Made by a program: the position numbers and the translations under genes. A stretch of 60,889 nucleotides of DNA, from positions 1 to 60,889 of IMG/VR virus record IMGVR_UViG_3300011439_000016, one strand, 5' to 3'. This document shows, one piece after another, positions 7,904 through 40,148 of this stretch (the stretch's first letter is position 1; each line of letters opens with the position of its first letter). The DNA comes from a virus (Duplodnaviria; Caudoviricetes). The notes below the pieces were generated by a model. That model was not told where the DNA came from. It saw nothing but the letters and a program-made list of their open reading frames with translations, and did no database searches.

Positions 7904-10900
7904 ATGGCTGACACCGGCTACAGGCCATACGGGGTGCGTTGGGACCGGCTGCCGCAGGCCACGAATATTGATGACCGGCGCGGACGTCCGATCGGCACAC
8001 CAGAACAACACGCAGCCATGCAGCGTGCTGCGGAGCGTTATTGGGCCGGAGAAATAAACGGCGCGGAATACACGAACATCGTCCAGCCCATCAGAGAAGC
8101 TTTTTACCACCAGCAGCACCCCACCGCGGTCGGCAGGGCCTGGGACACCGCAACTCGAAATCTCGATAAGGGGTGGACCGCCATTGACGATGCCACGCGC
8201 AGCTGGAGCACCCCACTGTCCAGAGACGCCGGCATCGACGACATCAACATCCGGCAACAAGAGGTTCCCGTCGACACCGCAACGCTATCCGACGGCATGA
8301 ATTCAGCTCCGTCGGATTACACCGGCGACTACGAGAGCGGCGACTTCAGCAGAGAAGAGTACAGCAGCCCTTACGAGCGCAGCACCCAAGGCTATGACGA
8401 AGCCGGATTCGAGGACGAGTCGGGTGCACCCAGCTACGACGAGGCCGGGTTCGAGGAAGATGAACCTGGTTACGAATACACGGAAGATCCACAGCAATAC
8501 ACAAACCCGGTCGAGCAATCGTCCTTCGACGAGACCGGATTCCAGGAAGAACTCGAGGCGTCGAGCTACGACGAGTCCGGGTTCGAGGATGCCGAGGGTT
8601 ACGCGGAAGGCGGCGAGGTCGAGGAGGATGAGTGGGAGACCTACGTAGATCCCCCGCAGCAATACGCCCAGTCGGCGGTCGGCACCGGGACGATGACGGA
8701 CGAAAGTCCCGAGCAGCCCGCGCCCAAACCCGCAGACGAGTGGGAGACCTACGTCGAGCCGCCCGAAGAAGCACCGCGCGTGCCGTCGATGTCGGATACC
8801 GGAGACGTGTGGTCGGGACAGGAAGCGCCCCCGCCCGTCCAGCGAGCCAGCGACAACGAGTGGCAGGACTACGTCGAACCCGACACCCCGCTGGGAGCGT
8901 TCAGTCGCGAGGTTGCTAAGGGCCTAGGTCCAGCAGCTGCTGGATCTGTTCTCGGCGCAGGGACCGGAGCCGCGCTTGGTGCCGCCGGATTCAACCCGGT
9001 CACCGTGGTCGGCGGCACCCTGATCGGGGGTGTTGCTGGCGGCTTCGGCGCCGAGGCACTGCAGGAAAAGGGCCTGCGGGCGTGGGGCGCGCAAGACGAT
9101 GCCGCGATCCGCCGCGCCAACGAGGAAGCCCATCCCTGGTCGACCTACGGCGGTAAAGCCATCTCCAACATCGCGGGCGGCGCTGCCGGTTTGGGCAAGG
9201 CCGCCATAACGACCGGTGCCAGGGTGCTTGGCGGCGGTATCGGCGCGGCCTGGGAAGCCGGCGTGCAGATGTACCATGGCCGGCCAGCCAAGGAGGCGCT
9301 CCCCGCGATCGCCTCCAGCGCCGTTGGCGGCGCGGTGTTCGCTGGAAAGCGCCCGTGGAGCCAGTGGGGAGAGACACAAGGAGCGAAGATCGGCGCCCGC
9401 TTCGCGCCAGCACCGCCGCCCGCACCCGCGCCGCCGATCCAACCCGCCGCGCCACCGCCGGATCAGGGGCAGCTGCCGTTCGGAGATACCCAAGCTCCCC
9501 CACATCTCCCCAAAGCAGGCGGGCCGCAGCAAGCCCAGATCGGTGGCGGCGAGGCGCAACCCGCGCTGCCGTTCGGTCAACCGGCACAGCCAGGTCGGCC
9601 GGGGGTCAGCCGGCAGCCGGAGCTGCCGCTTGAGCCACCGCCAACCGTCGATGCGCAAGGCCAGTACGGGCTGACGCTCAACGCGCCGCACCATGCCAGC
9701 CGGCACAGCCCGGACTCCACACCGGCTGGAGCCGGTAGCGCCAAGGAGCTGCCGCCGCCACGGGAGACCCAGTGGCCGGCGGTGCCGGACAGCGCGCGGC
9801 CCAGAGAACCGAACGCGCGTCCGCACAGCGCGGTCGGCGAAGGCCTAGCGCAGGAAGCCGCCGGTGTGGCGCCGCGCACGGCGGCCGGCATCCATGTCCT
9901 GCAGCCGGGGCAGATGGATCCGACGATCCAGGCCGGACTCAGGCAACCGACGGAAACCCTGCCGGTCCCCCCGCGCACGACGTTCGAACCGCCGCGCCCG
10001 CCATCACGTACGCCACCGGCACCGGTCGTGGAGCCGCTGCCGCGCAGCCGGTCACTGACGCACCCCAACACCAGGACGACGCAAGGCGTCACCGAACCAC
10101 CAGTCCCCGGCGGACACACCCGGATGTACCAGGGCCGCGGTCAGCCGCCGCGCGAGTTCTCGACCGATCGCGCAGTCGCGCAGCGGTACGGCCAGGTGAA
10201 ATACACCGACGTCAAGAACGACAGCATGCCGTTCTTCAAGCCCGGACGGCAGCAGGGACAGTACGTCACCGACAATCCGAACTTCCGGCAGCGGGCGCAG
10301 CCGGTCGGGCAGATCCAAACACAACCGCCAGGTGGGAGGAAAGCGGCGCCTGCGCCGGACGCAACCTCGCCCGCTGCCACTTCACCACCCGCTGGCGGCG
10401 CACCGCCCGTACCACGAATGTCCACGCCGGAGATCGACGCCGCGATCACGCGGGCGGTCGGACCGGGCGCGGCAGCTGCTCCAGCTGCGCCCGCGCGCCC
10501 CGCTGCGCCGCAAGCCCGCCAGGCCATCCTGACCACCAAGGCCGGCAAGCGCCCGGTGCGCGTCTCGCCCGACCCGCCGCGCAAAGGCAAGGACGGCCGC
10601 GAGTACCAGAAGGTCACCTACAAGGGGAAAGACTACTTCGTCCCGGCCGAACAGCTGACCATGAAGCCGCCGCCGAAGACCGACGCCGCGCGACGGGAGG
10701 AGTCGTTCAAAATCCTGGCGGACATAGACGCCAGAAAGAAAGCTGGTCAGGGGCTGCCGGAGCATCCGGCAGAACCGTCCGCCGACATGAGCTTCATCGG
10801 GCGCGAGGCGCTGGCGATCGCCAAAAAGATCGAGGCAACCGGACAACCGGACGCCAAGAGTTTTGTCGCCGGCATGCGCGCCGCAGCACACACCAACCGG

Positions 10901-13900
10901 GTCACGCCGGAAAATATGAAGTTCTACGAGCAACGGCTCGCCGAGTACCAGGCGCGGGTCGGCGGCGACAAGCCGAAGGAAGGCTATTCCGCCAGGAACA
11001 TGCTGGAGCCTGCGCAGAACAAGAAACTCGACACACTGCTCAAGGACCGCAGCACGCCGGCAAAGAACGAACTCGCCACCCTGCTCGACCGGGCCGTAAC
11101 GCGCAGTCAGGCGCTGGCCGAAGAGATCAACGCCGCCGGCTGGCGCATCCGCGACATCAACAGCGGGGACGTACGCATCCCGCCCGAGATCAGGGCAGCA
11201 CGCGCAAACCTGACCGCGATCGGCGGCTCGCTGGCGCGAACGCTGAACGGCATCAAGCTGGACAGCTACACAGGCAAGAAAACCCCGAAGCAGATCGAGG
11301 CCAGGGTGAAGGCCGACGTCGCGATGCTGCGCAAGGATCTGGCCAGCCAGAAACCGGAAACAATCCCGCAGCCAAAGAGGGAGCCTGCCCCGCCCGAGAA
11401 CGTGAAATACGCCGAAGAGCAAGCCGCCAGGGGAAAGAAAGAGATCGCCGAACACGCCGCCGACGTAACGGCGCGCGCCACCGCGCCGATCGACGTCAAG
11501 CTGGCGAACACGCTTCTTAACCAACCTGCAAGGTTGCGTGAAGAGGCGGCCAAACGCGGCGTTCGGCCGGACGAACTCAAGGCGCAGGCGCAAGAAGCCG
11601 TCAAACCCAAGCCGGTGGAAACGGCGCAGGTCAAGACGTTGCCCAAACCGGGTGACGATCTCGAGATCCCGGACTTCCTCAAGCGCGCGCCGAAAGCCGA
11701 GGCGCCGGCAGCTGCGGCAGAGAAGCCGCTCTACCCGCACGCCGCAACGCCCAAGCCCAAACTGGAAGCCGCCCTCGCAAAGGCCAGAGCGGAGGGGACA
11801 AAGCTCAACGAGGAAATGATCGCAGCCGGTCGCGGCACCGAGAAGCCGACGGAGACCAGGGGCAAGACCGACGACCTGTCGCAGCGCGTCAACAAATCCC
11901 ACGAACTGGAGAGAAGCCTGCAGGAAGAGGTCAAGCGGCGGCAGCGGTACCACGGCAAGACCACCCCGATCCCGGAAGGCAGCGCGCGCGACTCGTTCAT
12001 GGCCGAAGGGTTGATCCGACCAGGCGCAACGCGCGGTGACCCCGGCGCGCGGCGTGAAGGCGGTCCGCGCCGCATCGGCCGGCGCCCCGAGAAGCTGCCG
12101 ATCGGCACCGAACAGAAGATCCTGGAGAAGGGCTACGAAAAGGCGACCGGGCCGAAGCAGGAGCCGCGCAAGCCGTACATGGAGGGTGCCGAACGCAAAG
12201 GCGCCAAGGCCAAGGTCAAGACCCACGACGACGCGGTGTTCACGGGCGCCACCGTGCACGAAGCCGCCGTGTTCGCGCGCAACGCCGGCTACAAGGCGCA
12301 TCAGATTTTCGAGATGGGTGGCAAGCCCTATTCCCCGCCGAAGGCAGCCGCGTCAACAACCCCCGCCGCTGCCAAAGCCGCGCCTGCCGTCACCGGTTCC
12401 TCCGGTGGCGGCGGGACGCCGCCTGGCCCAAAGCTGACTGCGACCCCCGCGCCGGGAACGCCACAGGCACCTCCCGGCAAGATCATGGAAGCCGTCCAAG
12501 CGGGCAGCAACAAACTGTTTGATATCGGTCACGCGGTACAGATGCTGGCCACTCCGATGGTGCGCGGCACTCAGACCAGCATGGCGCTGGCCAAGGATTT
12601 TGCCAACACGTTGCGGCGCAACCGCTGGGAATGGTCGGACATCGACACCAAGATCGAGAAGAACCACAACCCGGAACGGCGCAAGGCGATGTGGGAAGCC
12701 GCCGACGCCGAGAGCGTGGCGCAGCAGCAGGGCAAGGCGGCCGGCAGCACGCCGGAATGGAAGGCCCTGGCGCCGAAAGAGCGCGACACCCTCAACGACT
12801 TGCACGAACGCGGCAAGGATGCGTGGGAGCGCGCCCGTGCTCTCGGCATGGTCGAAGGCGAGGGGTTGCCGGCCTACACGCCGCGCATGTTGATCAACCT
12901 CGCCAGGGGCAGCAGCGAAGGCGGACCAACCAACCTCGATCCGATCGGCCTCAACCTGCGCACCACCACTCCGCAGCTGAAGCACCGCAAGCACCTGACC
13001 ACGGCAGAAACCGAAGCGGCTGCAAAGCTCAAGTTCGGTGATAAGGCCGAGGTCGTAAAGGATATCCGCACCCTGCCGCTCGTCATCGCCAGACTCGAGG
13101 ATGCGATCGCCGGCCGCACCATGGTCGATGACATCAAAAAGATCGGCAAGCGCACCGGCACCGACGTCATAGCCGAAGGCTTCAAGCCGACCGGTAGCGA
13201 CCACGAGTGGTTCACCATCGATCACCCGTCGCTCAAGACCTGGCGCAAGAGCGGCGACAATTTTGTTCAGGTGCCGATCTACGTCCGCGGTGACTTCGAA
13301 GGTCCGCTACGGGCAGTCCTAACCAAGCCGTCTGGTCCGCTTTACAACCTGATGATGGACCTCAAATCCAAGTCCATGTCGGTGATCATGAACTCGCCGA
13401 TGATCCACAACGCGGTGGAGTGGGGCCGCGCGCTGCCGGCGATGCCGGGTAAGGTTCTCACCTTCAGGGTTTACTTCGACGGCAACCGCGCCAAGCACGA
13501 TCCCGCTGTCATGCGCGAGGCGATCGACAGCGGCCTGGTGCCGATCGGCAAGCGGTTCTTCAACCAGGATGTCCATGCCCTGCTGGAAGAACCGAACCTG
13601 ACGCCGGGACGATCCTGGACCTCGCAGGTTGTAGCCTTCGTACCCGGACTGTTCAGCAAGGAACTCAGCAACAAAACCAAGCTCGCCATCGATAAGGCCG
13701 GCGACTTCTGGCACAACACCTTGCTATGGGACCGGATCGGCGATCTGCAGATGGGGCTTTACACCAATCTGCGCGAAACAATCATGGCCAAGGGCGTCGA
13801 CCGGCAGACCGCTTCGCGCACGGCCGCCCACCTGGCCAACCGCTATGCCGGCGCCATCCCGCACGAAGCGATGTCCGACGGCGCGCGCAAGCTCGCCAAC

Positions 13901-14986
13901 GGGCTGATGTTCTCGCGCTCTTTCACGCTGGGCAACATCGGCGCCATGAAGGACATGTTCAACGGCATGCCGAAGGACGTGCGGGCACAGATCGAACGCG
14001 ACGTCGGCAGTCTCGACCCGAAGGCTATGGCTTACATCAAGTCGTACGCCAGGCGCAAAGCCGTTGCCATCATCGGGTTGGACATCGCGCTGATGTACAT
14101 CGGCAACTCGCTGCTGCAGAGCGGGTTGAACGTGTTGAAGGGCGACAAGACGCTTGACGAAGAAGGCCGCGGCTACATCGAACGTATGAACAGCATGATG
14201 AAGCATGTGGAGGAGAACCCGTGGGCGCTGCTGCAGCCGTTCCATTTGATGGAGTCGTTGTCGTCGACATCGGAGAACGAACCGGGCAAGCAGGACCGTG
14301 TCAGGGTAGGTTACACCAATGACGGTCAGGCCATCTACCTTCGTAACCCGGCCGGCAAGATCGGCGAGGAATTCGTCGGCTGGGCGACCGCTCCGCTCGA
14401 CATGATGCGGCGCAAGATGAGCACGATGGCGCGTCCGGCTTGGCAAATCATGTCCAACGACAAGGGCTTCGGCCGCAAGGTCTACGATCCGAACGCCGAC
14501 TCGGTTGGAAAATACACCAAGAACATAGCCAAAATATTTGAGCACATTGCTACGGCCCAAACGCCGGAGATCCAGATCAGCGGTGCGAAGAACCTCATTA
14601 CTGGTGAGGGTGACCCGACGCTGAGTAAATTCCAAACCTTCGGTCCGCTTGTCGGCGTGACGGCATCGCGCGGCGCCCCCGGCGGTCCCGCCATGGGCGA
14701 ACTCTACAAGGGCCGCGAGAAGCACCAGTTTTCCGTCAACGAGGCGCTGCCGGAGATCCGGCGTCTGATCAAGAGCGAGAAGGAAGGCGACTTCGACAAA
14801 GCGATCGACAAGATGTCCGATCTGGGCATCCCCAAGGCGCTGCAGAAATTCTACATTCGCACCACGCAAGACCCGAGCACACGGCTGACGCCAAAGGCAG
14901 CGAAGGATTTCTATCGTTACGCTACACCAGACGAAATCAAACGCTTCGAACGCGCGCAGGAGCAGCAGCAGAGGCGGCAGCAATAA
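7904..14986 (+). CDS. Giant internal virion (ejection) protein 3
   Basis: 2360 aa; Gly/Ala-rich hydrophobic segment near aa 340-480; helical C-terminal region; last and largest of the trio, as in podoviruses. Confidence 0.7.
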   Translation: MADTGYRPYGVRWDRLPQATNIDDRRGRPIGTPEQHAAMQRAAERYWAGEINGAEYTNIVQPIREAFYHQQHPTAVGRAWDTATRNLDKGWTAIDDATRSWSTPLSRDAGIDDINIRQQEVPVDTATLSDGMNSAPSDYTGDYESGDFSREEYSSPYERSTQGYDEAGFEDESGAPSYDEAGFEEDEPGYEYTEDPQQYTNPVEQSSFDETGFQEELEASSYDESGFEDAEGYAEGGEVEEDEWETYVDPPQQYAQSAVGTGTMTDESPEQPAPKPADEWETYVEPPEEAPRVPSMSDTGDVWSGQEAPPPVQRASDNEWQDYVEPDTPLGAFSREVAKGLGPAAAGSVLGAGTGAALGAAGFNPVTVVGGTLIGGVAGGFGAEALQEKGLRAWGAQDDAAIRRANEEAHPWSTYGGKAISNIAGGAAGLGKAAITTGARVLGGGIGAAWEAGVQMYHGRPAKEALPAIASSAVGGAVFAGKRPWSQWGETQGAKIGARFAPAPPPAPAPPIQPAAPPPDQGQLPFGDTQAPPHLPKAGGPQQAQIGGGEAQPALPFGQPAQPGRPGVSRQPELPLEPPPTVDAQGQYGLTLNAPHHASRHSPDSTPAGAGSAKELPPPRETQWPAVPDSARPREPNARPHSAVGEGLAQEAAGVAPRTAAGIHVLQPGQMDPTIQAGLRQPTETLPVPPRTTFEPPRPPSRTPPAPVVEPLPRSRSLTHPNTRTTQGVTEPPVPGGHTRMYQGRGQPPREFSTDRAVAQRYGQVKYTDVKNDSMPFFKPGRQQGQYVTDNPNFRQRAQPVGQIQTQPPGGRKAAPAPDATSPAATSPPAGGAPPVPRMSTPEIDAAITRAVGPGAAAAPAAPARPAAPQARQAILTTKAGKRPVRVSPDPPRKGKDGREYQKVTYKGKDYFVPAEQLTMKPPPKTDAARREESFKILADIDARKKAGQGLPEHPAEPSADMSFIGREALAIAKKIEATGQPDAKSFVAGMRAAAHTNRVTPENMKFYEQRLAEYQARVGGDKPKEGYSARNMLEPAQNKKLDTLLKDRSTPAKNELATLLDRAVTRSQALAEEINAAGWRIRDINSGDVRIPPEIRAARANLTAIGGSLARTLNGIKLDSYTGKKTPKQIEARVKADVAMLRKDLASQKPETIPQPKREPAPPENVKYAEEQAARGKKEIAEHAADVTARATAPIDVKLANTLLNQPARLREEAAKRGVRPDELKAQAQEAVKPKPVETAQVKTLPKPGDDLEIPDFLKRAPKAEAPAAAAEKPLYPHAATPKPKLEAALAKARAEGTKLNEEMIAAGRGTEKPTETRGKTDDLSQRVNKSHELERSLQEEVKRRQRYHGKTTPIPEGSARDSFMAEGLIRPGATRGDPGARREGGPRRIGRRPEKLPIGTEQKILEKGYEKATGPKQEPRKPYMEGAERKGAKAKVKTHDDAVFTGATVHEAAVFARNAGYKAHQIFEMGGKPYSPPKAAASTTPAAAKAAPAVTGSSGGGGTPPGPKLTATPAPGTPQAPPGKIMEAVQAGSNKLFDIGHAVQMLATPMVRGTQTSMALAKDFANTLRRNRWEWSDIDTKIEKNHNPERRKAMWEAADAESVAQQQGKAAGSTPEWKALAPKERDTLNDLHERGKDAWERARALGMVEGEGLPAYTPRMLINLARGSSEGGPTNLDPIGLNLRTTTPQLKHRKHLTTAETEAAAKLKFGDKAEVVKDIRTLPLVIARLEDAIAGRTMVDDIKKIGKRTGTDVIAEGFKPTGSDHEWFTIDHPSLKTWRKSGDNFVQVPIYVRGDFEGPLRAVLTKPSGPLYNLMMDLKSKSMSVIMNSPMIHNAVEWGRALPAMPGKVLTFRVYFDGNRAKHDPAVMREAIDSGLVPIGKRFFNQDVHALLEEPNLTPGRSWTSQVVAFVPGLFSKELSNKTKLAIDKAGDFWHNTLLWDRIGDLQMGLYTNLRETIMAKGVDRQTASRTAAHLANRYAGAIPHEAMSDGARKLANGLMFSRSFTLGNIGAMKDMFNGMPKDVRAQIERDVGSLDPKAMAYIKSYARRKAVAIIGLDIALMYIGNSLLQSGLNVLKGDKTLDEEGRGYIERMNSMMKHVEENPWALLQPFHLMESLSSTSENEPGKQDRVRVGYTNDGQAIYLRNPAGKIGEEFVGWATAPLDMMRRKMSTMARPAWQIMSNDKGFGRKVYDPNADSVGKYTKNIAKIFEHIATAQTPEIQISGAKNLITGEGDPTLSKFQTFGPLVGVTASRGAPGGPAMGELYKGREKHQFSVNEALPEIRRLIKSEKEGDFDKAIDKMSDLGIPKALQKFYIRTTQDPSTRLTPKAAKDFYRYATPDEIKRFERAQEQQQRRQQ

Positions 14987-19346: not shown

Positions 19347-19753
19347 GCTCGAGTCACTCCTATGGTTCGCATGCTGTTAATTTTGACGCCGGGTGGTAAC
19401 ACGCCGTCGTGGGCTTCAGCGTAGTCCCGGCACGCGACACCGTTCGCCCGCCGGTCGATCAAGTCGCGAAGGTTGTGTTCGAACACAAAATCCATGAACC
19501 GATCTGGATCGGTGCAGACCCCTGTGTGCCGGACCGAAATTCGGATCGAACCTGCTGTGGTCTTCGCGCTTTTCAGTCCGTTGCCATCGAGGAATTCCAG
19601 CAGTTCGCCGGTCAGCCGTTCCTTGGCCTTGACGAACGGCTTCAGCTCCTGCCGATGTCGCTCTTCGATCGCCTCGATTTCGTCGCGGATCATGACGTAT
19701 TGCGCGACCCGCTTGTCGATTTGGATGTTTGGTTTAACGTCAGATTTCATCAT
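19343..19753 (-). CDS. Conserved phage replication-module hypothetical protein
   Basis: Coupled ORF, RBS GGAG; coiled-coil N-terminus, KSAKTTAGS. Confidence 0.7.
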   Translation of the reverse strand: MMKSDVKPNIQIDKRVAQYVMIRDEIEAIEERHRQELKPFVKAKERLTGELLEFLDGNGLKSAKTTAGSIRISVRHTGVCTDPDRFMDFVFEHNLRDLIDRRANGVACRDYAEAHDGVLPPGVKINSMRTIGVTRA

Positions 19754-21323
19754 GTTCGAGTTCTCCATTGGACGCTGATGTTTTGATCATTTCTAAAAAC
19801 GCATCTTGAGTGCGCTGTTTCCGTCGCAGCATGTCATACACCTTGCGTTCGATCTGGGTCGATTGCAGATGTAAAAACAGCTGTTTCTCTTTTTGCCCAA
19901 CTCTCCTGATCCGGGCATTGGCTTGCTCGTAAATATCCAAACTGCATACCGGGCTGTACCAGATAATGGTCGAGGCCGCGGTCAACGTAAGACCGTGATG
20001 GATGCATTGCGGGTGAGCAAGCAGGACACGGTACTGCGTCGTATTTTGGAATGCATTAAAAATCTGCTCTCGCTTTTTTACATCCCCATGAACCACAGCA
20101 TGATCTATCTTTTCATCCGTCAGCAATGCTGACAGGCCCTCGATCAAATGCCGCCAGGGTGCGAACACAATCACCTTGTGTGGTGCTGCCTCAATCAGAT
20201 CCAACAACATCTGCTTACGTGGCTCTGCATCCAACACAACATGTAGCGGGTTCTGGCTGTACAGGTAGCCAGCACCGACCTGCAGCAGCTTGCCCATGGC
20301 AACTCCAGCGTTGGCTGCGGTGATGACCTGGTTCCGCAATAGGATTGCAAACTCATTTGCCAGCTTGCGGTAGGTGGTGGCCTGCTCCTCCGTCATTTCG
20401 ACGTCGATGGTCCGGTAGATGGCCTCCGGCAGCTCGACCACGTCGTCCAGCGAATAGCGCACCGAGGGCTGCATCCAGGTCAGCGCGGTGTCGATCGCAT
20501 CGGTCTTGGGCACCCACTTGTACTGGCTGACCTGGAGCATCAGCTGGCTGCGGGCGTGGCGGAAGTACTTCGGAATGGTGCCGGGGGTCAGGATCTTGCA
20601 CTGGTTCCAGACGTCGGTCGGGGCGTTCGGCATCGGCCGGCCGGTCAGCCCCCAGACCCAGGTAAACCGTTGGGCGAACTCGCGCATCCGCTTGGACCGC
20701 AGGCTGTTGTTACGGTAAACCGCCAGTTCGTCGAGGATCATGGCGTCGATGTCGGTCCGAGAATGTAAATCCTCGATAATCGACTTCAGACCGTCGTGGT
20801 TGATGATGTAAACGTCGGCGTCCTGGTCGAGCAATTTTAGACGTTTCTGCCGGGTACCGAACAATACAACTGTCTTAATTTCGGGCATTGTAAGGTGCAA
20901 TTCCCGTAACCAGACGAATTTCATGGTCGAAAGCGGGCAAACCACGAGTAATTTTTTGGCGGCCCCCGAATTGTAAAGGAACCGCCAGGACCAGATCGCA
21001 CTTTTAGTCTTGCCCGTGCCCATATCATTCAGAACGTAGGCCCGCAGATGACTAGTCGCCAAAGAGGCAGTGTTCTTTTGAACCTGAAACGGAATGGCTC
21101 CGTCACCACTGGGCCAGTCATAGTGAAACAGGATGGGGGCTGGCACCTCAATCCCGGCGCCGCGGAGCTGCATCTGGGTAGCTGGAGTGTGCGGCAGTAC
21201 GGCAAAGGTCTTGTGCTGATGCTCGATGGTTTTGACTTCATCGGTGATGAGCGTTTCAAGGCTATTGTTGTAGGGCACCAGGACGTGCCCGGTGGCGCGG
21301 GAGATGATCACTGAAGAGGTCAC
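19740..21323 (-). CDS. SNF2-family DNA helicase
   Basis: DMGTGKT, ILDE, LTGRP, HGLTLTAA, QANARIRRVGQ motifs; start uncertain. Confidence 0.92.
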   Translation of the reverse strand: MTSSVIISRATGHVLVPYNNSLETLITDEVKTIEHQHKTFAVLPHTPATQMQLRGAGIEVPAPILFHYDWPSGDGAIPFQVQKNTASLATSHLRAYVLNDMGTGKTKSAIWSWRFLYNSGAAKKLLVVCPLSTMKFVWLRELHLTMPEIKTVVLFGTRQKRLKLLDQDADVYIINHDGLKSIIEDLHSRTDIDAMILDELAVYRNNSLRSKRMREFAQRFTWVWGLTGRPMPNAPTDVWNQCKILTPGTIPKYFRHARSQLMLQVSQYKWVPKTDAIDTALTWMQPSVRYSLDDVVELPEAIYRTIDVEMTEEQATTYRKLANEFAILLRNQVITAANAGVAMGKLLQVGAGYLYSQNPLHVVLDAEPRKQMLLDLIEAAPHKVIVFAPWRHLIEGLSALLTDEKIDHAVVHGDVKKREQIFNAFQNTTQYRVLLAHPQCIHHGLTLTAASTIIWYSPVCSLDIYEQANARIRRVGQKEKQLFLHLQSTQIERKVYDMLRRKQRTQDAFLEMIKTSASNGELEHDEI

Positions 21324-29011: not shown

Positions 29012-29036
29012 TAGCACAGATTGGCCTATGTGTCAA
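29008..29036 (-). promoter_or_regulatory. sigma70-type promoter TTGACA-N17-TAGACT with TAGGCCAATCTGT operator in spacer
   Basis: Direct reading of minus strand. Confidence 0.7.
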
Positions 29037-34800: not shown

Positions 34801-34886
34801 TGCGAGTCCTCCATTGGGTTGATGAGAAACCAAACAAACCAAGCGAAACAAACGAGATAGAATCCGATTAGAATCCATTCCATTTT

Positions 34887-35105
34887 TTAGCCCTCCTGTT
34901 TTGCGTAGTGGTTTTGCAACGCCATAGCGGCATCGGCCTTGCAGTCGACAACGTCCGCCGGTTCATGCGGAATATTTACGATCCAATATCCGCTTTTGGT
35001 TTCGTAGGCGGACCCGCTCAAAGAGAACGCCCGTTCGCGTGGCCGGTAGACCAGCAAACGCGCTAGGCCATCGGTTAACTTGCTTTCGCGAATCGATACT
35101 TTCAT
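34887..35105 (-). CDS. Hypothetical protein
   Basis: Coupled ORF. Confidence 0.6.
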   Translation of the reverse strand: MKVSIRESKLTDGLARLLVYRPRERAFSLSGSAYETKSGYWIVNIPHEPADVVDCKADAAMALQNHYAKQEG

Positions 35106-35371
35106 GATTCAGGCCTTTCGATTTTGCTGATGCGATAGCATTCTGCCAGCCGGTCCTCGGCTGCGATGTCGGCATCGCGTTGCGCTTCCGTTGGCTCTGG
35201 CGCTTGCAGCCAAGCGCCAGCAATGGCCGCCTCTGGCGAAGCGTAGGCAATGGGCAAGCCCGCGCGATTGGTGACGGTGTGCCATTGTTCGCCAGCGTAG
35301 AATCTGCCGTGCCATGTCGGCTTGCCAGCGTAGGGTTTCGCGGGCGTTGCTTTCACTTTTGGTTCATGCAT
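35102..35371 (-). CDS. Hypothetical protein
   Basis: RBS AAGGATTCG. Confidence 0.65.
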   Translation of the reverse strand: MHEPKVKATPAKPYAGKPTWHGRFYAGEQWHTVTNRAGLPIAYASPEAAIAGAWLQAPEPTEAQRDADIAAEDRLAECYRISKIERPES

Positions 35372-35385
35372 GGGTCGAATCCTTT

Positions 35386-36048
35386 TCAATGTTTGTGATA
35401 GGAAACATTCTTGACGCGCGGGTTCCAGCATGCGCGGCAATCACCGCATGCGTTGTCCTGGCTTGGCGCGGGACAGGTCCGGCCTTGCGCTTTGCTGGCA
35501 TGGTGCACGGTTGACGTTGTGGCCCATGCTTTCGTTGCAGGACCGTCGACCATGGTTGCGCTAACGCGAATAACCAAATTGCGCGGCACTACGCCCCCGG
35601 CGGCTTGATACGCTTTCACGAACGCAAGCTCGCGAGTCGGCAGCCAATGCTTTATTTTGGGCGTTAAGCGCGCCACCTCGCAGATTTTGGCAAGATGGTC
35701 CACCGATTGCAGGTCGCCCGAGTCGTGCCAACGATGGAATCCGACGTCGATTGACTCGCCTAACCGGTTTTTGCCGCGCGCATGCGATACGGTGATAATC
35801 TTGACCATGGCCGCGACCCAATGCGGGGAGTCGAGGTTCGACTCGCGCTTGGCGTGCGCGACCTGGACGCTAGGATAAATATAATTCCCCTTAAGCGCAT
35901 AGCAGCCAAAGCAAACACTGCCGGGAATCTTCGCCAGTTTGCCGCCGGTTAGGCAATGCGTTGCGCTTATGCCGTAGGAGGTTCCTGGCATTTTGCTAGG
36001 GAATCCAATTGTCCCGGCTATCGCGGTTGCTTGTTTCAGAGTGTCCAT
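35386..36048 (-). CDS. GP88-like (radical-SAM-related Cys-motif) phage protein
   Basis: SKMPG...C..G.KL...GSVCFGCYA..G; RWHDSGD; CGDCRACW. Confidence 0.75.
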   Translation of the reverse strand: MDTLKQATAIAGTIGFPSKMPGTSYGISATHCLTGGKLAKIPGSVCFGCYALKGNYIYPSVQVAHAKRESNLDSPHWVAAMVKIITVSHARGKNRLGESIDVGFHRWHDSGDLQSVDHLAKICEVARLTPKIKHWLPTRELAFVKAYQAAGGVVPRNLVIRVSATMVDGPATKAWATTSTVHHASKAQGRTCPAPSQDNACGDCRACWNPRVKNVSYHKH

Positions 36049-36085
36049 TGTCCGAGTCCTTGTTCTAGGCTTGTTCTTTCCATAC

Positions 36086-36113
36086 TCTTATTTTAGAACA
36101 TTGTAAAATAAGA
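36086..36113. promoter_or_regulatory. 10-bp inverted repeat (TCTTATTTTA-N8-TAAAATAAGA) within a probable leftward promoter
   Basis: Perfect arms; TTGCAA on minus at 36115-36120. Confidence 0.55.
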
Positions 36114-36118
36114 ATTGC

Positions 36119-36148
36119 AAAAAACCGGGCGTTAATTAACGCCCGGTT
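36119..36148 (-). terminator. Perfect palindrome hairpin + U-tract
   Basis: aaccgggcgttaattaacgcccggtt followed by tttt on minus. Confidence 0.7.
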
Positions 36149-36157
36149 AATTGCGGC

Positions 36158-36439
36158 TTAGACTTGCGAGCCTGCGAAGACTCCAACGTGAAACGAGTCG
36201 CGCGAGTCTTGCGGGTCCATGACCCATGCGGTTTCGCCGCTTGGCAATCCGCCGCCGACCCATGCCCCGGACCATTTGAATTTACGGGCCAGCGCATGCG
36301 CGGCAATGCGGTGATTATCGCCAGCGTTTAGCGCATCATCCCAATTTAGCGTTAAGCTTCCGGCTTGTGCGGTTGCCTTGACGCGCGACCCGCGAACATT
36401 CGACGGGCCTAGATATTTTGTAACAATTGCTTGCGGCAT
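36158..36439 (-). CDS. Hypothetical conserved phage protein
   Basis: QAIVTKYLGPSNVRGSRVKA; RBS AAGGATTCG. Confidence 0.75.
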   Translation of the reverse strand: MPQAIVTKYLGPSNVRGSRVKATAQAGSLTLNWDDALNAGDNHRIAAHALARKFKWSGAWVGGGLPSGETAWVMDPQDSRDSFHVGVFAGSQV

Positions 36440-36515
36440 GGTTCGAATCCTTGTTTTCCGGTTGCGGCATGATTGCCGGTAATGGCGCGCGGGTTAGGCG
36501 CGCCATTGGCTGCAA

Positions 36516-37064
36516 TCACTCGAGTCCTATTTTGTTGATGCATTCCGGGCCGAAACCCTGCCCGACACTGCTAGGAACGGTTAGCTTGCGGCCACAGCGG
36601 CCACAGTTTGACTCATGCCATACCTCGCAATGGTCCGGCATGGTGCCGCGCATGAGCGCGCGCCAAGCGTACGCAAAGGCCTTAGAGCTTGGCGCGTCCG
36701 GGCCGATATCACCTGGACGCGGCACCTTGCGACCCGGCCAGAATATGCCGCGCGACAATCGGCCTAGATATTTATAATCTTGCGTATTGTCCGGGCCGTT
36801 TAGCAGCGCGACAAAGTATGCCGCGCCATCGGGCGCGGCGGATATGCGATAGGTGAATCGCGTGCCAGTCTTTTCGCTAACAAGGGTTAGCGTTGCCTTC
36901 CCGGCTAGGATGTAGCGGTTAGCGGCAGCGGCATCGATTAGGCGTCCGCTCAAATTGACCGGCTCGCGGACATGGTTCCAATTAACCCCCGGCGCGTCCA
37001 GGTTCGACTCCAGGTCCGGGATGGCCGACTCCAGGTCCGCCAAAAATGCGTTTTCCCGGCTCAT
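36516..37064 (-). CDS. DUF6011-like Zn-binding protein
   Basis: CGRCGRKLTVPSSV..GFGPEC. Confidence 0.8.
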   Translation of the reverse strand: MSRENAFLADLESAIPDLESNLDAPGVNWNHVREPVNLSGRLIDAAAANRYILAGKATLTLVSEKTGTRFTYRISAAPDGAAYFVALLNGPDNTQDYKYLGRLSRGIFWPGRKVPRPGDIGPDAPSSKAFAYAWRALMRGTMPDHCEVWHESNCGRCGRKLTVPSSVGQGFGPECINKIGLE

Positions 37065-37342
37065 TGGCGCACCTGCGAAAGGCGCGGGCAACGGCGGACA
37101 AGGTTTCGATCGGACGAGTCGGTTAGGTGGGTTTCGGGCAGGGTCCGAAAATAGTCCGAATGCCGTCCGGCATGCCGCGCGATAAATGCGGGCGCGTCGG
37201 AGTCTTCCTCGAGGTAGAGAATCCCTAGCTTGCGGTTGATGTAGGAATAACCGCTAAAATCGCCGATTGCCGCGCCGACGTCGGCTAGGTCCGCAAAGCT
37301 AACCGCAAGCCAGCCGTGGCCCGCATCTGTAATCCAACGCAT
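37061..37342 (-). CDS. Hypothetical conserved protein, first early gene
   Basis: DAGHGWLAV...YLEEDSDA; RBS AAGGACTCG. Confidence 0.75.
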   Translation of the reverse strand: MRWITDAGHGWLAVSFADLADVGAAIGDFSGYSYINRKLGILYLEEDSDAPAFIARHAGRHSDYFRTLPETHLTDSSDRNLVRRCPRLSQVRQ

Positions 37343-37377
37343 GTTCGAGTCCTTTCGTTTTTGGGTTTAGTACTTTT

Positions 37378-37422
37378 TGGCCTACAGAATTTTTGCATAG
37401 CGGTCAAGTATTTTTTGGCCTA
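37378..37422 (-). promoter_or_regulatory. Leftward early promoter (TTGACC) flanked by two TAGGCCAAAAA sites
   Basis: tggccta at 37378 and 37416; ggtcaa at 37402. Confidence 0.55.
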
Positions 37423-37476
37423 TTCTATAGGAAGACATTCCACCAGTCTTTTCAATGGGTTAGCGGTGGCCGGTTT

Positions 37477-37725
37477 TCACTAGCTCAAAATCCGACAATC
37501 CGGCAGGCAATGACGCAAAAACAGAATCAAAAAAAAATACTGTCGGAAAAGAACAAATCAGTAGCTCACTATCAAGAAAACAATAATAATATCATATACT
37601 TAGTAAATATATATATTCTAAATCTCTTTTCGAGCTTGTGCAGTTTTACCGGCTTTTGAGATTGCAAAAGAGCTTGTGCAGTTTTTGATTGATCGGTGCC
37701 GGATAGCCGGATTTTGAGCTAGTGA
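37477..37725. other. Putative replication origin / terminus-associated element
   Basis: 29-bp inverted repeat (27/29) enclosing AT-rich core and two 16-bp direct repeats. Confidence 0.5.
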
Positions 37726-38315
37726 CCAGCCGAATCGGCCTAACTCATTGGAATCGTTAGAGTCGGTTGAAATCTCATTATCCAAACGCAAGCCAGACAA
37801 TCGATTTAGTGGAATCCAAGGAATCGGCTCCTATCGGCCTTTTGGCCCTGGACCTGGACCGGCCAAGCTTCCCATATGCTTCCCAATGTGGCCAAGCCAA
37901 TGGAATGATATTGATATCATTAGAGAATATGCTTTAGACCCTCTGTTTACTAGACAGAGGGTCCAGCCATTAACCATAGAAGGAGGCCCCCCTCCCCCCC
38001 TCCGGGGGGGAGGCTGGACAGGCCGGGGGCCTGGTCGTCAACACTTGCATGGACCCACAAATATGCATGACTAGCTTTTGGAAATACAACCCTAGATTTT
38101 ATTTCCATACGCCATAAATACCGCGGGTATTTATTTAAAGGCCGCAGCGATTAATTAAATTCTTTGTTTCGCCACAATAATTAACACCCCCGGACTTTCC
38201 TCTTCGCGGGCGGCGCCGCACGCTGTGCCGGCACCGCGCGCCGCCGTGCGCGCCCCCGTCCACACCCGCATGTTACGCTAATTGACACCCCAGGCACCGC
38301 GGGCCACATACCGGG

Positions 38316-38385
38316 GGTTCGAGTCCATTACTCCTGACGGCCGGCCGCAACGCCCCCCAGCTTCGATGGCCGGCCGTCTTCTTTT
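38316..38385 (+). ncRNA. Candidate small RNA (about 70 nt)
   Basis: TTGACA at 38282; 11-bp perfect stem 38336-46/38368-78 followed by ttctttt; 5' end complementary to early RBSs. Confidence 0.4.
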
Positions 38386-38420
38386 GCCAAACCCTTTGAA
38401 CTGCTGTACTTCTGGCAGCC

Positions 38421-38927
38421 GTGGCAGGCCCTCTACCCCTTGAGACGGTAGCCGTCCGCCTTGCGGATGAAGGGGTACCCTTGCGGGCGATCGCGCGCGC
38501 CACCGGCACGCCGTCGGACGCTTTGCGCGAGCGCCTTACAGAGGCGAAAACCAACGGGATCCTGGTCGATCTGCCCAAGGAGGACTGGCCCCCCGGCTTC
38601 CCCAGGGACCAGCGCGCGCTGCAGCTCTCGAGAATGGTCGCCGACGACAAGGCGGCGGTCGAGCTGGCGCTCCAGCAGGTGTTCCACCTGACCTCGACCG
38701 AAGTCGGGCTGATGCTGCTGTTGATGGCCAACCCGTCGGTTCCGAAGGAGCGCATCAACATGGTGCACCGGACCATCGATGTGCACATCTGCAACATCCG
38801 GCGCCGCTTGGCGCCGTTCGACGTTTCGGTGGGGACGTTGTGGGGCTACGGCTACCAGTTGACCGCGGCGGCGCGGCAGAAGATCATGGAGCTGATCCTG
38901 GCTCATGCCGCAGAACGCCATGCCTAG
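38421..38927 (+). CDS. OmpR/PhoB-type winged-helix regulator, CtrA-like DNA-binding domain, no receiver domain
   Basis: HLTSTE...TIDVHICNIRRRL...TLWGYGYQL; N-terminal HTH-like segment. Confidence 0.8.
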   Translation: MAGPLPLETVAVRLADEGVPLRAIARATGTPSDALRERLTEAKTNGILVDLPKEDWPPGFPRDQRALQLSRMVADDKAAVELALQQVFHLTSTEVGLMLLLMANPSVPKERINMVHRTIDVHICNIRRRLAPFDVSVGTLWGYGYQLTAAARQKIMELILAHAAERHA

Positions 38928-39036
38928 TCCAGACCCGCCTAAATCGATCAAGCAGCAGGCCGAAGCGTGGTGGGACCGGCCGTTCATCGTCGACCCGCTG
39001 AAGCCGGCGCGCTGGCGGATCGGCTGGGCCGACGAG

Positions 39037-39444
39037 CTAGAGTACGATCGGTATCCGGTCGTTCTTGACCAGGATGACGGTCGTCCATTTGGCGCCCAAA
39101 CGGCCGTCTAGGCCGGCCTGCGCCACCTTCTTGATGTCCGAGAAGTAGGGTTCCTCGCGCCAGCGCAGCGGATAGTCCGGGTCGACCACGAACAATACGA
39201 AGGTATGGTCGGCTTCGATCTTGGTATCGACGATGATCCTGGCGGTCTTCGGATACCAGTAGTCCAGGAACCGCTCGTCCTTCAGCCATTGGCAGTTGAA
39301 GTCGCGGCAGCGGCCGGGGCGGGTTTCGTAGATCTTGCACCCCGTGCCGGGGGTACAATGAGGACACCACTTGTAGTCTTCCTTGACCTCGGGAACGCCC
39401 ATTACCCGGCAGCAGAGCGTGCAGCTTCCACATTCTCGAGGCAT
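39037..39444 (-). CDS. YkgJ-like CxxCxxCC metal-cluster protein
   Basis: CGSCTLCC...CPHC...CKIYETRPGRCRDFNCQW. Confidence 0.8.
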   Translation of the reverse strand: MPRECGSCTLCCRVMGVPEVKEDYKWCPHCTPGTGCKIYETRPGRCRDFNCQWLKDERFLDYWYPKTARIIVDTKIEADHTFVLFVVDPDYPLRWREEPYFSDIKKVAQAGLDGRLGAKWTTVILVKNDRIPIVL

Positions 39445-39602
39445 GAGTGCCTGGGTAGCATGTCCGGCAGGCCTTGGCAGCCGAACATGGTCATCACCGG
39501 AAAGCCGTCGTCGGCCAGTTTTCGGACGTGCGGACAGTTCGCGGCGTGCATCATGTGGCTGCCGTCGCGCTCTTCGGCCATCGCCAGGTCGTAAAGTTTC
39601 AT
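39402..39602 (-). CDS. Hypothetical protein
   Basis: ORF track; HAANCPH, HSC. Confidence 0.55.
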   Translation of the reverse strand: MKLYDLAMAEERDGSHMMHAANCPHVRKLADDGFPVMTMFGCQGLPDMLPRHSCLENVEAARSAAG

Positions 39603-39607
39603 GTGAA

Positions 39608-39668
39608 AGGCCGGAAATTAGACCGGCTAAGGCCGGAAACTAAATTTAGGCCGGAAACTAAGTTTCCG
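39608..39668. repeat. Three AGGCCGGAAAYTA repeats plus palindrome
   Basis: Copies at 39608, 39630, 39648; cggaaact-a-agtttccg. Confidence 0.85.
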
Positions 39669-39672
39669 ACCG

Positions 39673-39921
39673 TCACTTGACCGTGGTCGCGGCCTTCACG
39701 GCCCACATCGCCGCCTCTTCGTAGGCGGTCATAGCGAGCCGGCACAGCCGGGTCTGCTCGCCGGCCGACGGGTAGGCGGCGTCGGCCTTCTCGAGTTCTT
39801 GACATAGATCAATCAGGTCGGCGGTGAACCGCTTGATCTTGTCGACCATGTTGGACTCGGAAGGGTTGAAGCTCTCTCGGACCCGGAAGGCTCCGAGGCT
39901 GCGGCCGTCTGGCGTGCTCAT
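39673..39921 (-). CDS. Acb2/Tad1-like helical-hairpin protein (putative sponge)
   Basis: LG..RV..SFNPS....VDKIK...ADLID...LAMTAYEEAAMWAVKAAT. Confidence 0.65.
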   Translation of the reverse strand: MSTPDGRSLGAFRVRESFNPSESNMVDKIKRFTADLIDLCQELEKADAAYPSAGEQTRLCRLAMTAYEEAAMWAVKAATTVK

Positions 39922-40148
39922 GCGACTATAATCCCCCAGTCGTCGGACAACAGGTCGGTCTGGCTGGCGAGCCACGGCACCAGGTTGTCGTCGGCTGTTT
40001 TCATGAAAATGTAGGGCAGCGTCATCTTGGAGTTGTCGTCCGGGCTTTGCAGCTCGAGCCACATCCCTTTGCCGTTCCAGCCGGCGCGCGCGACCCGGTG
40101 TCCAAGCTTCAGCTCTGTCAGGGCTTCGCCAAAATCCATCCTGTCCAT
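39918..40148 (-). CDS. DUF2829 / Tad2-like anti-Thoeris sponge protein
   Basis: MDFGEAL..LK.G.RVARAGWNGKGMW...PYI.MKT...VPWLASQTDLLSDDW. Confidence 0.88.
   Translation of the reverse strand: MDRMDFGEALTELKLGHRVARAGWNGKGMWLELQSPDDNSKMTLPYIFMKTADDNLVPWLASQTDLLSDDWGIIVA

Follow-up and report, generated by a model that had tools for sequence, protein, structure and literature searches.

Short antisense RNAs that pair with ribosome-binding regions of the phage's own genes are known from phages P1 and P7 (c4), P4 (CI) and N15 (CA). The seed and the target of c4 differ together between P1 and P7, and this joint difference determines specificity. Hfq-type small RNAs (sRNAs), such as the prophage-encoded DicF, carry a 5' seed and a Rho-independent terminator. 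The early messages of phage T4 are shut down by two proteins, the translational repressor RegA and the endoribonuclease RegB, which cleaves Shine-Dalgarno (SD) sequences. The timing of gene expression in virulent phages is usually credited to promoters, sigma factors and proteins such as RegA and RegB, and the documented cases in which a phage controls its own early genes through RNA come mostly from temperate phages, with one or two targets. The subject of this report is a segment at positions 38282-38385 (plus strand) of the virus record IMGVR_UViG_3300011439_000016 (Duplodnaviria; Caudoviricetes). The whole IMG/VR record, 60,889 bp in length, was analysed and is called the window. The segment is a candidate sRNA gene, which consists of a promoter-like site, a seed region and an intrinsic terminator. 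Its seed is complementary to a sequence tag shared by the start sites of several early genes of the same phage, and in two related phages a unit of the same layout carries a different seed, which matches a different tag.

The candidate RNA resembles c4, CI and CA in that a short exposed segment is directed against ribosome-binding regions, and in that seed and target co-vary between related phages. It differs from them in several respects. The c4, CI and CA RNAs are processed from the operon that they control, belong to temperate phages or satellites, serve in immunity and have one or two target sites, whereas the unit of the window lies on the strand opposite to its target operon, has its own promoter-like site and terminator, and matches 5-9 start sites. 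It matches no Rfam family in sequence or structure and is accordingly not a member of the c4/CI/CA family, and the phage shows no integrase or resolvase gene. Like the Hfq-type sRNAs, the candidate RNA has an unpaired seed, preceded in some cases by a 5' hairpin, and a terminator with a U-tail, and A-rich tracts lie upstream of its targets; unlike theirs, these targets are the phage's own early genes and not host genes. It would share with RegA and RegB the silencing of early messages through a common feature of the initiation region, and would differ from them in that the effector is an RNA and not a protein. P22 sar and lambda OOP (PMC5415839) are antisense RNAs encoded in cis, each overlapping the one gene that it targets. 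As they are described there, both are short, terminate intrinsically and act on a phage gene by base pairing to inhibit it, as is proposed here. In contrast to them, the candidate RNA has its gene at a distance of about 1 kb or more from the targets, several of which are matched.

On the side of the targets, the tags resemble the start-associated sequence (SAS) of Cluster K mycobacteriophages, an asymmetric repeat that precedes the start codons of some non-structural genes by a few bases (Pope et al. 2011, PMC3203893). According to the account of the motif in that report, it comprises an SD core and conserved bases with which 16S rRNA cannot pair, occurs in one orientation and precedes genes of different families, a single reverse-oriented copy lies off gene starts in four genomes, and the binding partner is left open as 'either RNA or protein' (PMC3203893). 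The tags of the window and of its relatives follow this pattern, because they are located 3-7 bp before starts, in one orientation, and contain an SD core. The SAS sequence (GGGATAGGAGCCC), the host and the phage type are different, and the SAS consensus is absent here; the tags are thus an analogue, not a member, of the SAS. The window also offers a candidate partner RNA and its tags differ between lineages, whereas no such partner is proposed for the SAS in that account of the motif. A literature search for phage sRNAs acting on the ribosome-binding sites of early genes did not find the present arrangement, which is no proof that it is unpublished. A multi-target, independently transcribed and co-evolving anti-start-site RNA in an apparently virulent phage family would be a variant on the known antisense RNAs.

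The segment is located directly upstream of a gene for an OmpR/PhoB-type winged-helix regulator. Relatives were found through the protein encoded by this gene and comprise 30 loci, in 3 viral contigs and 27 metagenome contigs. G000 is the window, G001 is identical to locus L005, and G002 is identical to locus L006, a complete 68-kb genome of which L036 is the other contig end. The closest relatives by identity of the regulator protein are L007 (86%) and L008 (77%). The first-pass annotation had described a TTGACA box, an 11-mer and an 11-bp stem with a T-tract in the segment, and each of these elements was found again at its position. The elements of the unit are as follows.

38282..38287, plus strand: -35-like box TTGACA of the promoter-like site P1, within the block ATTGACACC (38281-38289), which is invariant in the window, L007 and L008
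38305..38310, plus strand: weak -10-like element CACATA, 17 nt past the -35 box
38313..38385, plus strand: predicted sRNA of about 70 nt, with a putative 5' end and with the T-tract as its 3' end
38316-38326, plus strand: 11-mer GGTTCGAGTCC, the only exact copy in the window
38316..38336, plus strand: seed region, which consists of GGTTCGAGTCC and its conserved continuation ATTACTCCTG and is complementary to the tagged start sites
38336..38385, plus strand: intrinsic terminator with 11-bp GC arms (38336-38346 and 38368-38378) and the T-tract TTCTTTT (38379-38385)

The DNA to the left of the -35 box has diverged between the window and L007 and L008, and between the -35 block and the seed (38290-38316) only 4 of the 27 positions are invariant in these three genomes. 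Positions 38317-38336 are invariant at 19 of 20 positions (block GTTCGAGTCCATT[A/G]CTCCTG). The position proposed for the 11-mer is confirmed, but its first G (38316) is not conserved in L007 and L008, and the conserved block is 38317-38336. The equivalents of the -10 element are CACATA in L007, CACAAA in L008 and CACATT in L005. The terminator folds with -33.5 kcal/mol (z-score of -3.1), and none of 200 shuffled sequences folds as well. One pair of its stem is G-C in the window, G-U in L008 and A-U in L007, which is a compensatory change. The seed is mostly unpaired in the predicted folds. The CCAUU of the seed lies in the loop of a weak 4-bp hairpin in the alignment fold. The block conservation, together with the G-C/G-U/A-U pair, is what would be expected of a promoter followed by an unpaired RNA segment with a function and a hairpin with a structural role. 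An intrinsic 3' terminator, as expected of an independent sRNA, is present (11-bp GC stem, T-tract and the z-score of -3.1), and so, in silico, is a conserved and accessible seed with multiple targets. As to a promoter of its own, the -35 box is perfect and invariant, the spacer is variable and the -10 box is weak. Segment 38282-38385 is probably an sRNA gene.

The unit contains no ATG, and no conserved open reading frame (ORF) is present on either strand of it in the three closest genomes. A minus-strand ORF that starts within the seed has 16, 9 or more than 35 codons in these genomes, and because its length varies in this way the unit does not encode a conserved peptide. A relaxed Rfam scan of 38200-38450 gave only matches with E above 1, to unrelated families. 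TTGACA is depleted in the window (10 found against 22.3 expected), and all of 100 shuffled sequences contained at least 10 copies; the phage appears to avoid stray -35 boxes. The combination of TTGACA, a spacer of 17 nt and a -10-like element occurs at only two sites in the window, namely P1 and a leftward site at 29036, which precedes a gene.

It had been claimed from the sequence that the seed is antisense to a shared motif, AGGAYTCG, at the ribosome-binding sites of early minus-strand genes. This claim is borne out by the complementarity and by the duplex energies. The tag, aAGGAyTCGaaC, stands directly before the ATG of five promoter-proximal genes and of two distal genes, all of them on the minus strand.

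37343..37352, minus strand: tag GGACTCGAAC in the site aaAGGACTCGAAC-ATG (ATG 37342) of a 93-amino-acid ORF that opens the leftward operon; it forms 10 Watson-Crick pairs with the seed, -19.1 kcal/mol
36440..36450, minus strand: tag GGATTCGAACC in the site aAGGATTCGAACC-ATG (ATG 36439) of a 93-amino-acid protein gene (phrog_3199); 11 pairs including one G-U pair, -22.2 kcal/mol
36050..36059, minus strand: tag GGACTCGGAC in the site aAGGACTCGGACA-ATG (ATG 36048) of a 220-amino-acid protein gene (Pfam GP88); 10 pairs including one G-U pair, -18.6 kcal/mol
35375..35382, minus strand: tag GGATTCGA in the site aAGGATTCGACCC-ATG (ATG 35371) of an 89-amino-acid protein gene; -18.7 kcal/mol
34803..34809, minus strand: tag GGACTCG in the site GGAGGACTCGCA-ATG (ATG 34800) of a 74-amino-acid protein gene; -17.9 kcal/mol
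19754..19761, minus strand: distal tag ACTCGAAC in the site GGAGAACTCGAAC-ATG (ATG 19753) of a 136-amino-acid protein gene with a weak match to Mu Gam; -16.1 kcal/mol
19347..19355, minus strand: distal tag GACTCGAGC in the site GGAGTGACTCGAGC-ATG (ATG 19346) of a 346-amino-acid protein gene; -22.0 kcal/mol

The matches that had been reported before the distal genes 19753 and 19346 are thus present. Among the 26 minus-strand start sites for which duplex energies were calculated, the six best-pairing tagged sites range from -22.2 to -17.9 kcal/mol. Site 32674, which matches the AAUGGAC part of the seed complement, lies within the range of the tagged sites (-19.2 kcal/mol). The tagged site 19753 (-16.1) falls just below the untagged site 34579 (-16.5), and the remaining untagged sites range from -15.0 to -7.6 kcal/mol. 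AATGGAC, found at or near three start sites (34062 and 32674 on the minus strand, and 36048), is the complement of another part of the seed, GUCCAUU. A-rich tracts are located directly upstream of the targeted start sites; that they are binding sites for a chaperone or for ribosomal protein S1 is speculation. Across the window GGAYTCG occurs at chance level (24 found, 24.7 expected). Six of these 24 copies are located on the minus strand within 34803-37352, a stretch of 2.55 kb at the head of the operon, and five of the six directly precede a start codon. About 0.5 copies are expected in this stretch (Poisson P of about 1e-5). Because the copies cluster at the head of the operon before start codons, the start-site tag is real and local.

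According to the mechanism favoured here, host RNA polymerase would start a few bases past the weak -10 element, at about 38313-38317, and would stop at the hairpin and T-tract (38336-38385). The product, about 70 nt long, would have an unstructured 5' part (GGUUCGAGUCCAUUACUCCUG) ahead of the terminator hairpin. The 5' part would pair with the tag aAGGAyUCGaaC between the SD and AUG of the first leftward early genes and of two genes further downstream, with 10-11 contiguous base pairs at the best three sites. Pairing of the SD and the spacer would prevent the binding of 30S subunits and may, in addition, make the mRNA prone to decay. A single RNA would in this way turn down the tagged subset of early proteins, and each lineage would use the same type of gene at the same place, with its own seed and its own matching tag. 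If P1 is constitutive, the accumulating RNA could act as a timer; alternatively, P1 could be controlled by the regulator. The early-to-late switch of the first-pass annotation is conjectural, and its term 'late regulator' is no more than a name for the neighbouring gene. The sequence elements, the conservation pattern, the compensatory change in the terminator, the complementarity and its recurrence with different sequences are seen in the DNA, and the synthesis of the RNA, its start point, its pairing in vivo, the repression, its timing and any tie to the neighbouring regulator are inferred. That the sRNA pairs with the tagged early start sites is probable, and that it acts in trans as an anti-start-site RNA to repress translation of the early genes is the reading to which the evidence leans. 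The sRNA proposed in the first-pass annotation is thus upheld, in silico, as regards the unit, the complementarity between seed and tag, and the recurrence in relatives.

Covariation of the seed and the ribosome-binding sites in related phages, which had been named as a check, was examined in G001 and G002. In each of these phages the linker between promoter and terminator matches a start-site tag of its own, which differs from that of the window. The three phages therefore have three seeds and three different shared tags in the same layout of promoter, linker and terminator. The shared tag is GATCATGA in G002 and CTAGCAATG in G001. The matches are as follows.

G002, linker UUCAUUGCUAGGG: pairs with L006 start sites 1199 (GGAGTCTAGCA-ATG-AA), 1922 (GGAATCCCTAGCA-ATG-G) and 3259 (GAGGTAACCTAGCA-ATG-A), and more weakly with 3223 and 265; it also matches, at the opposite contig end, L036 sites 19653 (14 nt) and 18730
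G001, linker GUCGUUCAUGAUCAUU: pairs with L005 start sites 4459 (GGACAAAACGATC-ATG-AATGAC, 13 nt), 2164 (GGACTAACGATC-ATG-AA), 3399 (GGACTCT-ATGATCATGG), 3686 and 2397

In the predicted folds of the G001 and G002 RNAs, the linker is unpaired between a 5' hairpin and the terminator. By BLAST comparison of the early proteins of the window, G001 and G002, tags are not shared between orthologues. The best target in G001, the DUF6011 gene, is untagged in the window and in G002. The Gam-like gene 19753 and its neighbour 19346 are tagged in the window only, and the G002b_19635 family is tagged in G002 only. Neither G001 nor G002 has an orthologue of any of the five proximal tagged genes of the window. 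These comparisons show that the tags are acquired, not inherited, and that each lineage tags its own choice of genes. Such lineage-specific tagging fits selection to match a lineage-specific partner.

Weaker cases are L028 and L026. In the distant L028 group, the unit consists of the promoter-like site TTGCGC-N17-TATGTT, a 5' hairpin, a linker containing UUGGGUGUG and a terminator, in this order, and (C)ACACCCAA adjoins 5 of the 8 early start sites of L028. In L026 the RNA sequence CUCCGUUG matches two start sites that have GCCGCAACGGAG in common. Six of the 8 early sites of L028, all on the minus strand (starts 4635, 3262, 3034, 2095, 1817 and 949), share GGAGCAAC, which consists of an SD and four fixed bases. 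This is a second start-site tag system, which is more uniform still.

The proposal of a self-contained unit from promoter to terminator is supported, in silico, by its retention at the same position in relatives. A hairpin followed by a plus-strand T-tract is located just upstream of the regulator gene in about 23 of the 30 relatives, and the stem sequences are unrelated. A second group of relatives (L006/L004, L010, L030, L026 and L011) keeps TTTGACT, GGTCAAGGA, TCCATTGCT, the hairpin and the T-tract. The family-wide motif TCCATTGCT gave no target enrichment in the window (7 near-matches against 5.0 expected). In this second group the -35 box is matched by an inverted copy downstream, the two forming TTGAC-N17/18-GTCAA, a possible operator. 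L003 has an additional plus-strand ORF of about 157 codons (3366-3838), also present in L004 and L006, directly upstream of the sRNA promoter; its stop codon overlaps the TTGAC box, and it looks like an insertion of the homing-endonuclease type. Small ORFs of a zinc-ribbon-like type (CxxC ... FCSxxCR..HR) adjoin the unit in either orientation (L007 424-700, plus strand; L010 23-220, minus strand; L019 at about 4170-4392, minus strand), and the related DUF6011 motif is found at the C-terminus of the protein encoded by 36516-37064 in the window. An exact search of viral contigs with the conserved 20-mer gave 0 matches, and a profile search of genome contigs with the regulator gave 106 pattern matches, none of which is a relative. 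A search with the DUF6011 early protein gave 10 loci, 8 of them new, and none of these encodes the regulator.

The complementarity was assessed by two run-based tests. In the long-run test, runs of at least 10 pairs with at most one G-U pair were counted between hand-defined RNA bodies and candidate start sites. The counts within the own genome are 3 for the window, 2 for G001 and 4 for G002, and the six cross-genome counts are 0, 0, 0, 2, 0 and 0. The own-genome count is reached by 2 of 300 shuffles for the window (shuffle mean 0.18), by 9 of 300 for G001 and by 2 of 300 for G002. In the uniform test, the RNA body was the 50 nt before the hairpin, Watson-Crick runs of at least 7 were counted, the sites were every start with an SD among minus-strand ORFs of 50 codons or more, and 400 composition-preserving shuffles were used. 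L011 and L016 fall outside this test because they have no candidate start sites. The results of the uniform test are as follows.

Window: 16 observed, shuffle mean 6.5, reached by 1 of 400 shuffles
G001: 11 observed, shuffle mean 2.9, reached by 0 of 400
G002: 18 observed, shuffle mean 6.1, reached by 0 of 400
L026: 3 observed, shuffle mean 0.5, reached by 4 of 400
L028: 4 observed, shuffle mean 1.2, reached by 20 of 400
L019: 0 observed, not significant
L020: 0 observed, not significant
L021: 1 observed, not significant
L023: 1 observed, not significant

When all 50-nt windows of both strands are ranked in the same way, the RNA body is equalled or bettered by 28 of 4868 in the window, by 6 of 1406 in G001 and by 12 of 2335 in G002. 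The complementarity recurs in G001 and G002 with P below about 0.01 in each. A 9 x 9 cross matrix with 70-nt bodies is noisy, with own-genome hit rates of 0-0.25 per set of translation-initiation regions, an off-diagonal mean of 0.038 and a largest off-diagonal value of 0.5. Scans with long duplex windows were uninformative, because GC-rich coding sequence dominated the top matches.

Several results weigh against the sRNA and its proposed targets. The -10 box is weak, a sigma-70 consensus scan did not call P1, and a transcription start after about 38318 would truncate the seed. Specificity is seen with long runs only and is poor at runs of at least 9, where the G001 RNA also matches 5 candidate sites of the window and 6 of G002. 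In each of the three genomes some other 50-nt window equals or betters the RNA body. In the window alone, Watson-Crick-only runs of at least 8 (2 against a mean of 0.46, reached by 40 of 500 shuffles) and of at least 9 (1 against a mean of 0.14, reached by 65 of 500) are not significant. A weighted helix score that tolerates G-U pairs, which covered 324, 105 and 213 loosely defined start sites, does not separate real from shuffled seeds (140 of 300 in the window, 187 of 300 in G001 and 20 of 300 in G002). Four of the nine loci testable by the uniform test (L019, L020, L021 and L023) are without enrichment. The contigs of L007 and L008 are too short to reach the early genes, and the covariation test accordingly covers relatives outside the window's own subgroup. 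In L019 the reverse complement of the box TTGACTCC is GGAGTCA-ATG, the start site of a real-looking minus-strand ORF of 73 amino acids, and the TTGAC boxes of distant relatives can accordingly not all be read as promoters. Because the tests on the window alone are mixed, the case for the sRNA rests on the recurrence of complementarity at a syntenic, pre-specified place in several lineages and not on the numbers of the window.

The most serious alternative, an unlikely one, is that the seed is a further copy of the minus-strand start-site tag. A leftward transcript would then start at or to the right of the hairpin, a small ORF would be translated from it, the hairpin would be a stabilising 5' structure, and the complementarity to a plus-strand RNA would be a mere by-product. 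All copies of the tag, including that in the seed, are indeed on the minus strand, and the minus-strand reading of the seed provides an SD, a spacer and an ATG in L006, L030 and L010 (GGAAaccctAGCA-ATG, GGACgtctAGCA-ATG and AAGGttAGCA-ATG); this reading also counts against the sRNA. The minus-strand frame of L010 is open for 98 codons and runs into the zinc-ribbon-like ORF, although this ORF probably starts at an internal Met. In the window, however, 7 additional bases separate the tag from the next ATG, and the alternative AGGAG-ta-ATG has a spacer of only 2 nt. No SD is present in L005. The length of the ORF is unstable, from 9 to more than 35 codons in the closest relatives and 25 codons in L030 against 98 in L010. 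The T-tract is on the plus strand in all relatives, the conserved -35 box points rightward, and the consensus scan called no minus-strand promoter-like site to the right of the seed. It is rather improbable that the promoter and terminator are real and have no function in trans, the unit insulating or tuning the regulator promoter by occlusion or as a roadblock and the complementarity being fortuitous or compositional. The overlap of the terminator T-tract with the -35-like box of a second promoter-like site would suit such a role, as would the retention of the hairpin in relatives without detectable complementarity (L019-L023) and the position of TTGACA only 26 nt before the hairpin in L014 and L032, which leaves almost no RNA body. 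The linker between promoter and hairpin is, however, the best-conserved non-coding stretch in close relatives (19 of 20 positions; TCCATTGCT in the L006 group). An insulator needs no conserved linker and is weakened by this result, and the complementarity recurs with different sequences in G001 and G002.

The order of promoter, terminator and gene is also the classic layout of an attenuator, and the seed is located directly 5' of the left arm of the hairpin. The unit might on this account be a leader of the regulator gene that senses abundant tagged early mRNAs, whose pairing would change termination and couple synthesis of the regulator to early expression. This is very improbable: a separate conserved promoter-like site is located between the hairpin and the start codon, the gene has no SD, the complementarity to the tags stops short of the hairpin arm, and no alternative antiterminator fold appears in minimum free energy or centroid predictions. 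The tags may instead be recognised by a protein, such as a RegA-like repressor or a RegB-like endoribonuclease, or may be recombination 'boundary' sequences for the exchange of cassettes. Such explanations would suit the lineage-specific tags and the nature of the tagged genes, most of which are small, accessory and lack orthologues in G001 and G002. They do not account for the position of the extra copy, which in four or five lineages is located within a rightward promoter-terminator unit, in its unpaired linker, and no candidate RNA-binding protein was identified, without a systematic search for one; their probability is judged to be quite small. The 11-mer GGTTCGAGTCC resembles the tRNA T-arm consensus, and could accordingly be a T-arm fragment marking attP or a tRNA remnant. 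The stem-closing bases of the T-arm are missing, the first G is not conserved, ARAGORN and Rfam gave no tRNA, and neither an integrase nor a recombinase was found in G000 or G002, so that this explanation is rejected as having almost no likelihood.

If the sRNA acts as proposed here, it would represent a multi-target RNA regulon within a lytic phage, with 5-9 sites and with seeds and tags that differ across at least 3 lineages. Short orthogonal pairs of RNA and tag could then be used as translational switches. A broader reading, put forward only tentatively, is that virulent soil phages use a private RNA 'address code', in which a small RNA specific to each lineage and encoded beside the regulator gene shuts down together a changing set of tagged early genes. 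The seed and its tags would diversify jointly from lineage to lineage, as c4 specificity does between P1 and P7. Such a code, if true, could decide which co-infecting relatives are silenced and which escape, and would offer a testable partner for unexplained start-associated motifs such as the SAS of Cluster K. The proposed sRNA would likewise suggest a mechanism for 'start-associated' repeats, for which the partner has been left open since the report of 2011 (PMC3203893).

The regulator gene and the region between it and the sRNA unit contain the following features.

38384..38412, plus strand: second promoter-like site TTGCCA-N17-TACTTC, which ends 8 nt before the GTG of the regulator gene
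38421..38927, plus strand: gene for a winged-helix DNA-binding protein of 168 amino acids with a GTG start (Pfam Trans_reg_C, E 4.2e-07, 30.4 bits against a cut-off of 26.2; phrog_731)

The blocks TTTTGCCAA and GAACTGCTGTA of the second promoter-like site are invariant in the window, L007 and L008, and its -35-like TTGCCA overlaps the end of the terminator T-tract. A TAnnnn box 5-8 nt before the start of the regulator gene recurs in most relatives, as judged by eye, and no SD is visible before the gene. These features suggest that the mRNA of the regulator is leaderless or near-leaderless and is transcribed from its own promoter. The mRNA of lambda cI from PRM is an example of a leaderless mRNA. 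Because of the conserved promoter-like box and the lack of an SD, the region is read as two back-to-back rightward units, the first for the sRNA and the second for a leaderless mRNA of the regulator.

The completeness of the virus record is estimated at 92%. The window contains no tRNA genes according to ARAGORN, and no Rfam family was matched at gathering score over its whole length. The closest named phages by TerL are the Rhizobium phages RHph_TM3_14A, TM27A/B and TM29, with an identity of only 49.7%. The host is perhaps a Rhizobiales-like soil bacterium. A megablast search of phage records with 37000-40000 and a tblastn search with the regulator protein gave no match. Neither a tyrosine integrase (PF00589) nor a serine recombinase (PF00239) is present in the window or in the complete relative G002, and the phage therefore looks virulent. 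The leftward block (15351-37342) codes for DNA polymerase A, a DUF927 primase-helicase-like protein, an SNF2 helicase and a PD-(D/E)XK nuclease, and these genes are preceded by small genes without assigned function. About 1 kb of non-coding DNA separates the first leftward gene (ATG 37342) from the rightward regulator gene, and the candidate sRNA unit lies towards the right end of this gap.

Other elements of the gap are a direct repeat and a pair of palindromic structures. The 16-nt repeat GAGCTTGTGCAGTTTT is present in two copies (37632-37647 and 37670-37685), 38 nt apart in an AT-rich region. Both copies overlap a leftward promoter-like site, TGCACA-N16-TAGAAT, and may be early promoters or binding sites of the regulator. 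A 10-bp hairpin at 37937-37963 (GACCCTCTGT...ACAGAGGGTC) is followed by a palindrome of G/C runs at 37982-38015. The hairpin and the palindrome recur with sequence changes in L002, L007 and L008, and are possible origin, packaging or end sequences. To the right of the regulator gene, a minus-strand ORF of 129 amino acids (39673-40062) adjoins the large terminase gene and matches the Acb2/Tad1 hairpin domain of Pfam (PF24729, E 3.9e-11, 43.4 bits against a cut-off of 27); it likely encodes an anti-CBASS/Thoeris nucleotide sponge. In the structural block, one plus-strand ORF has 2360 codons (7904-14986).

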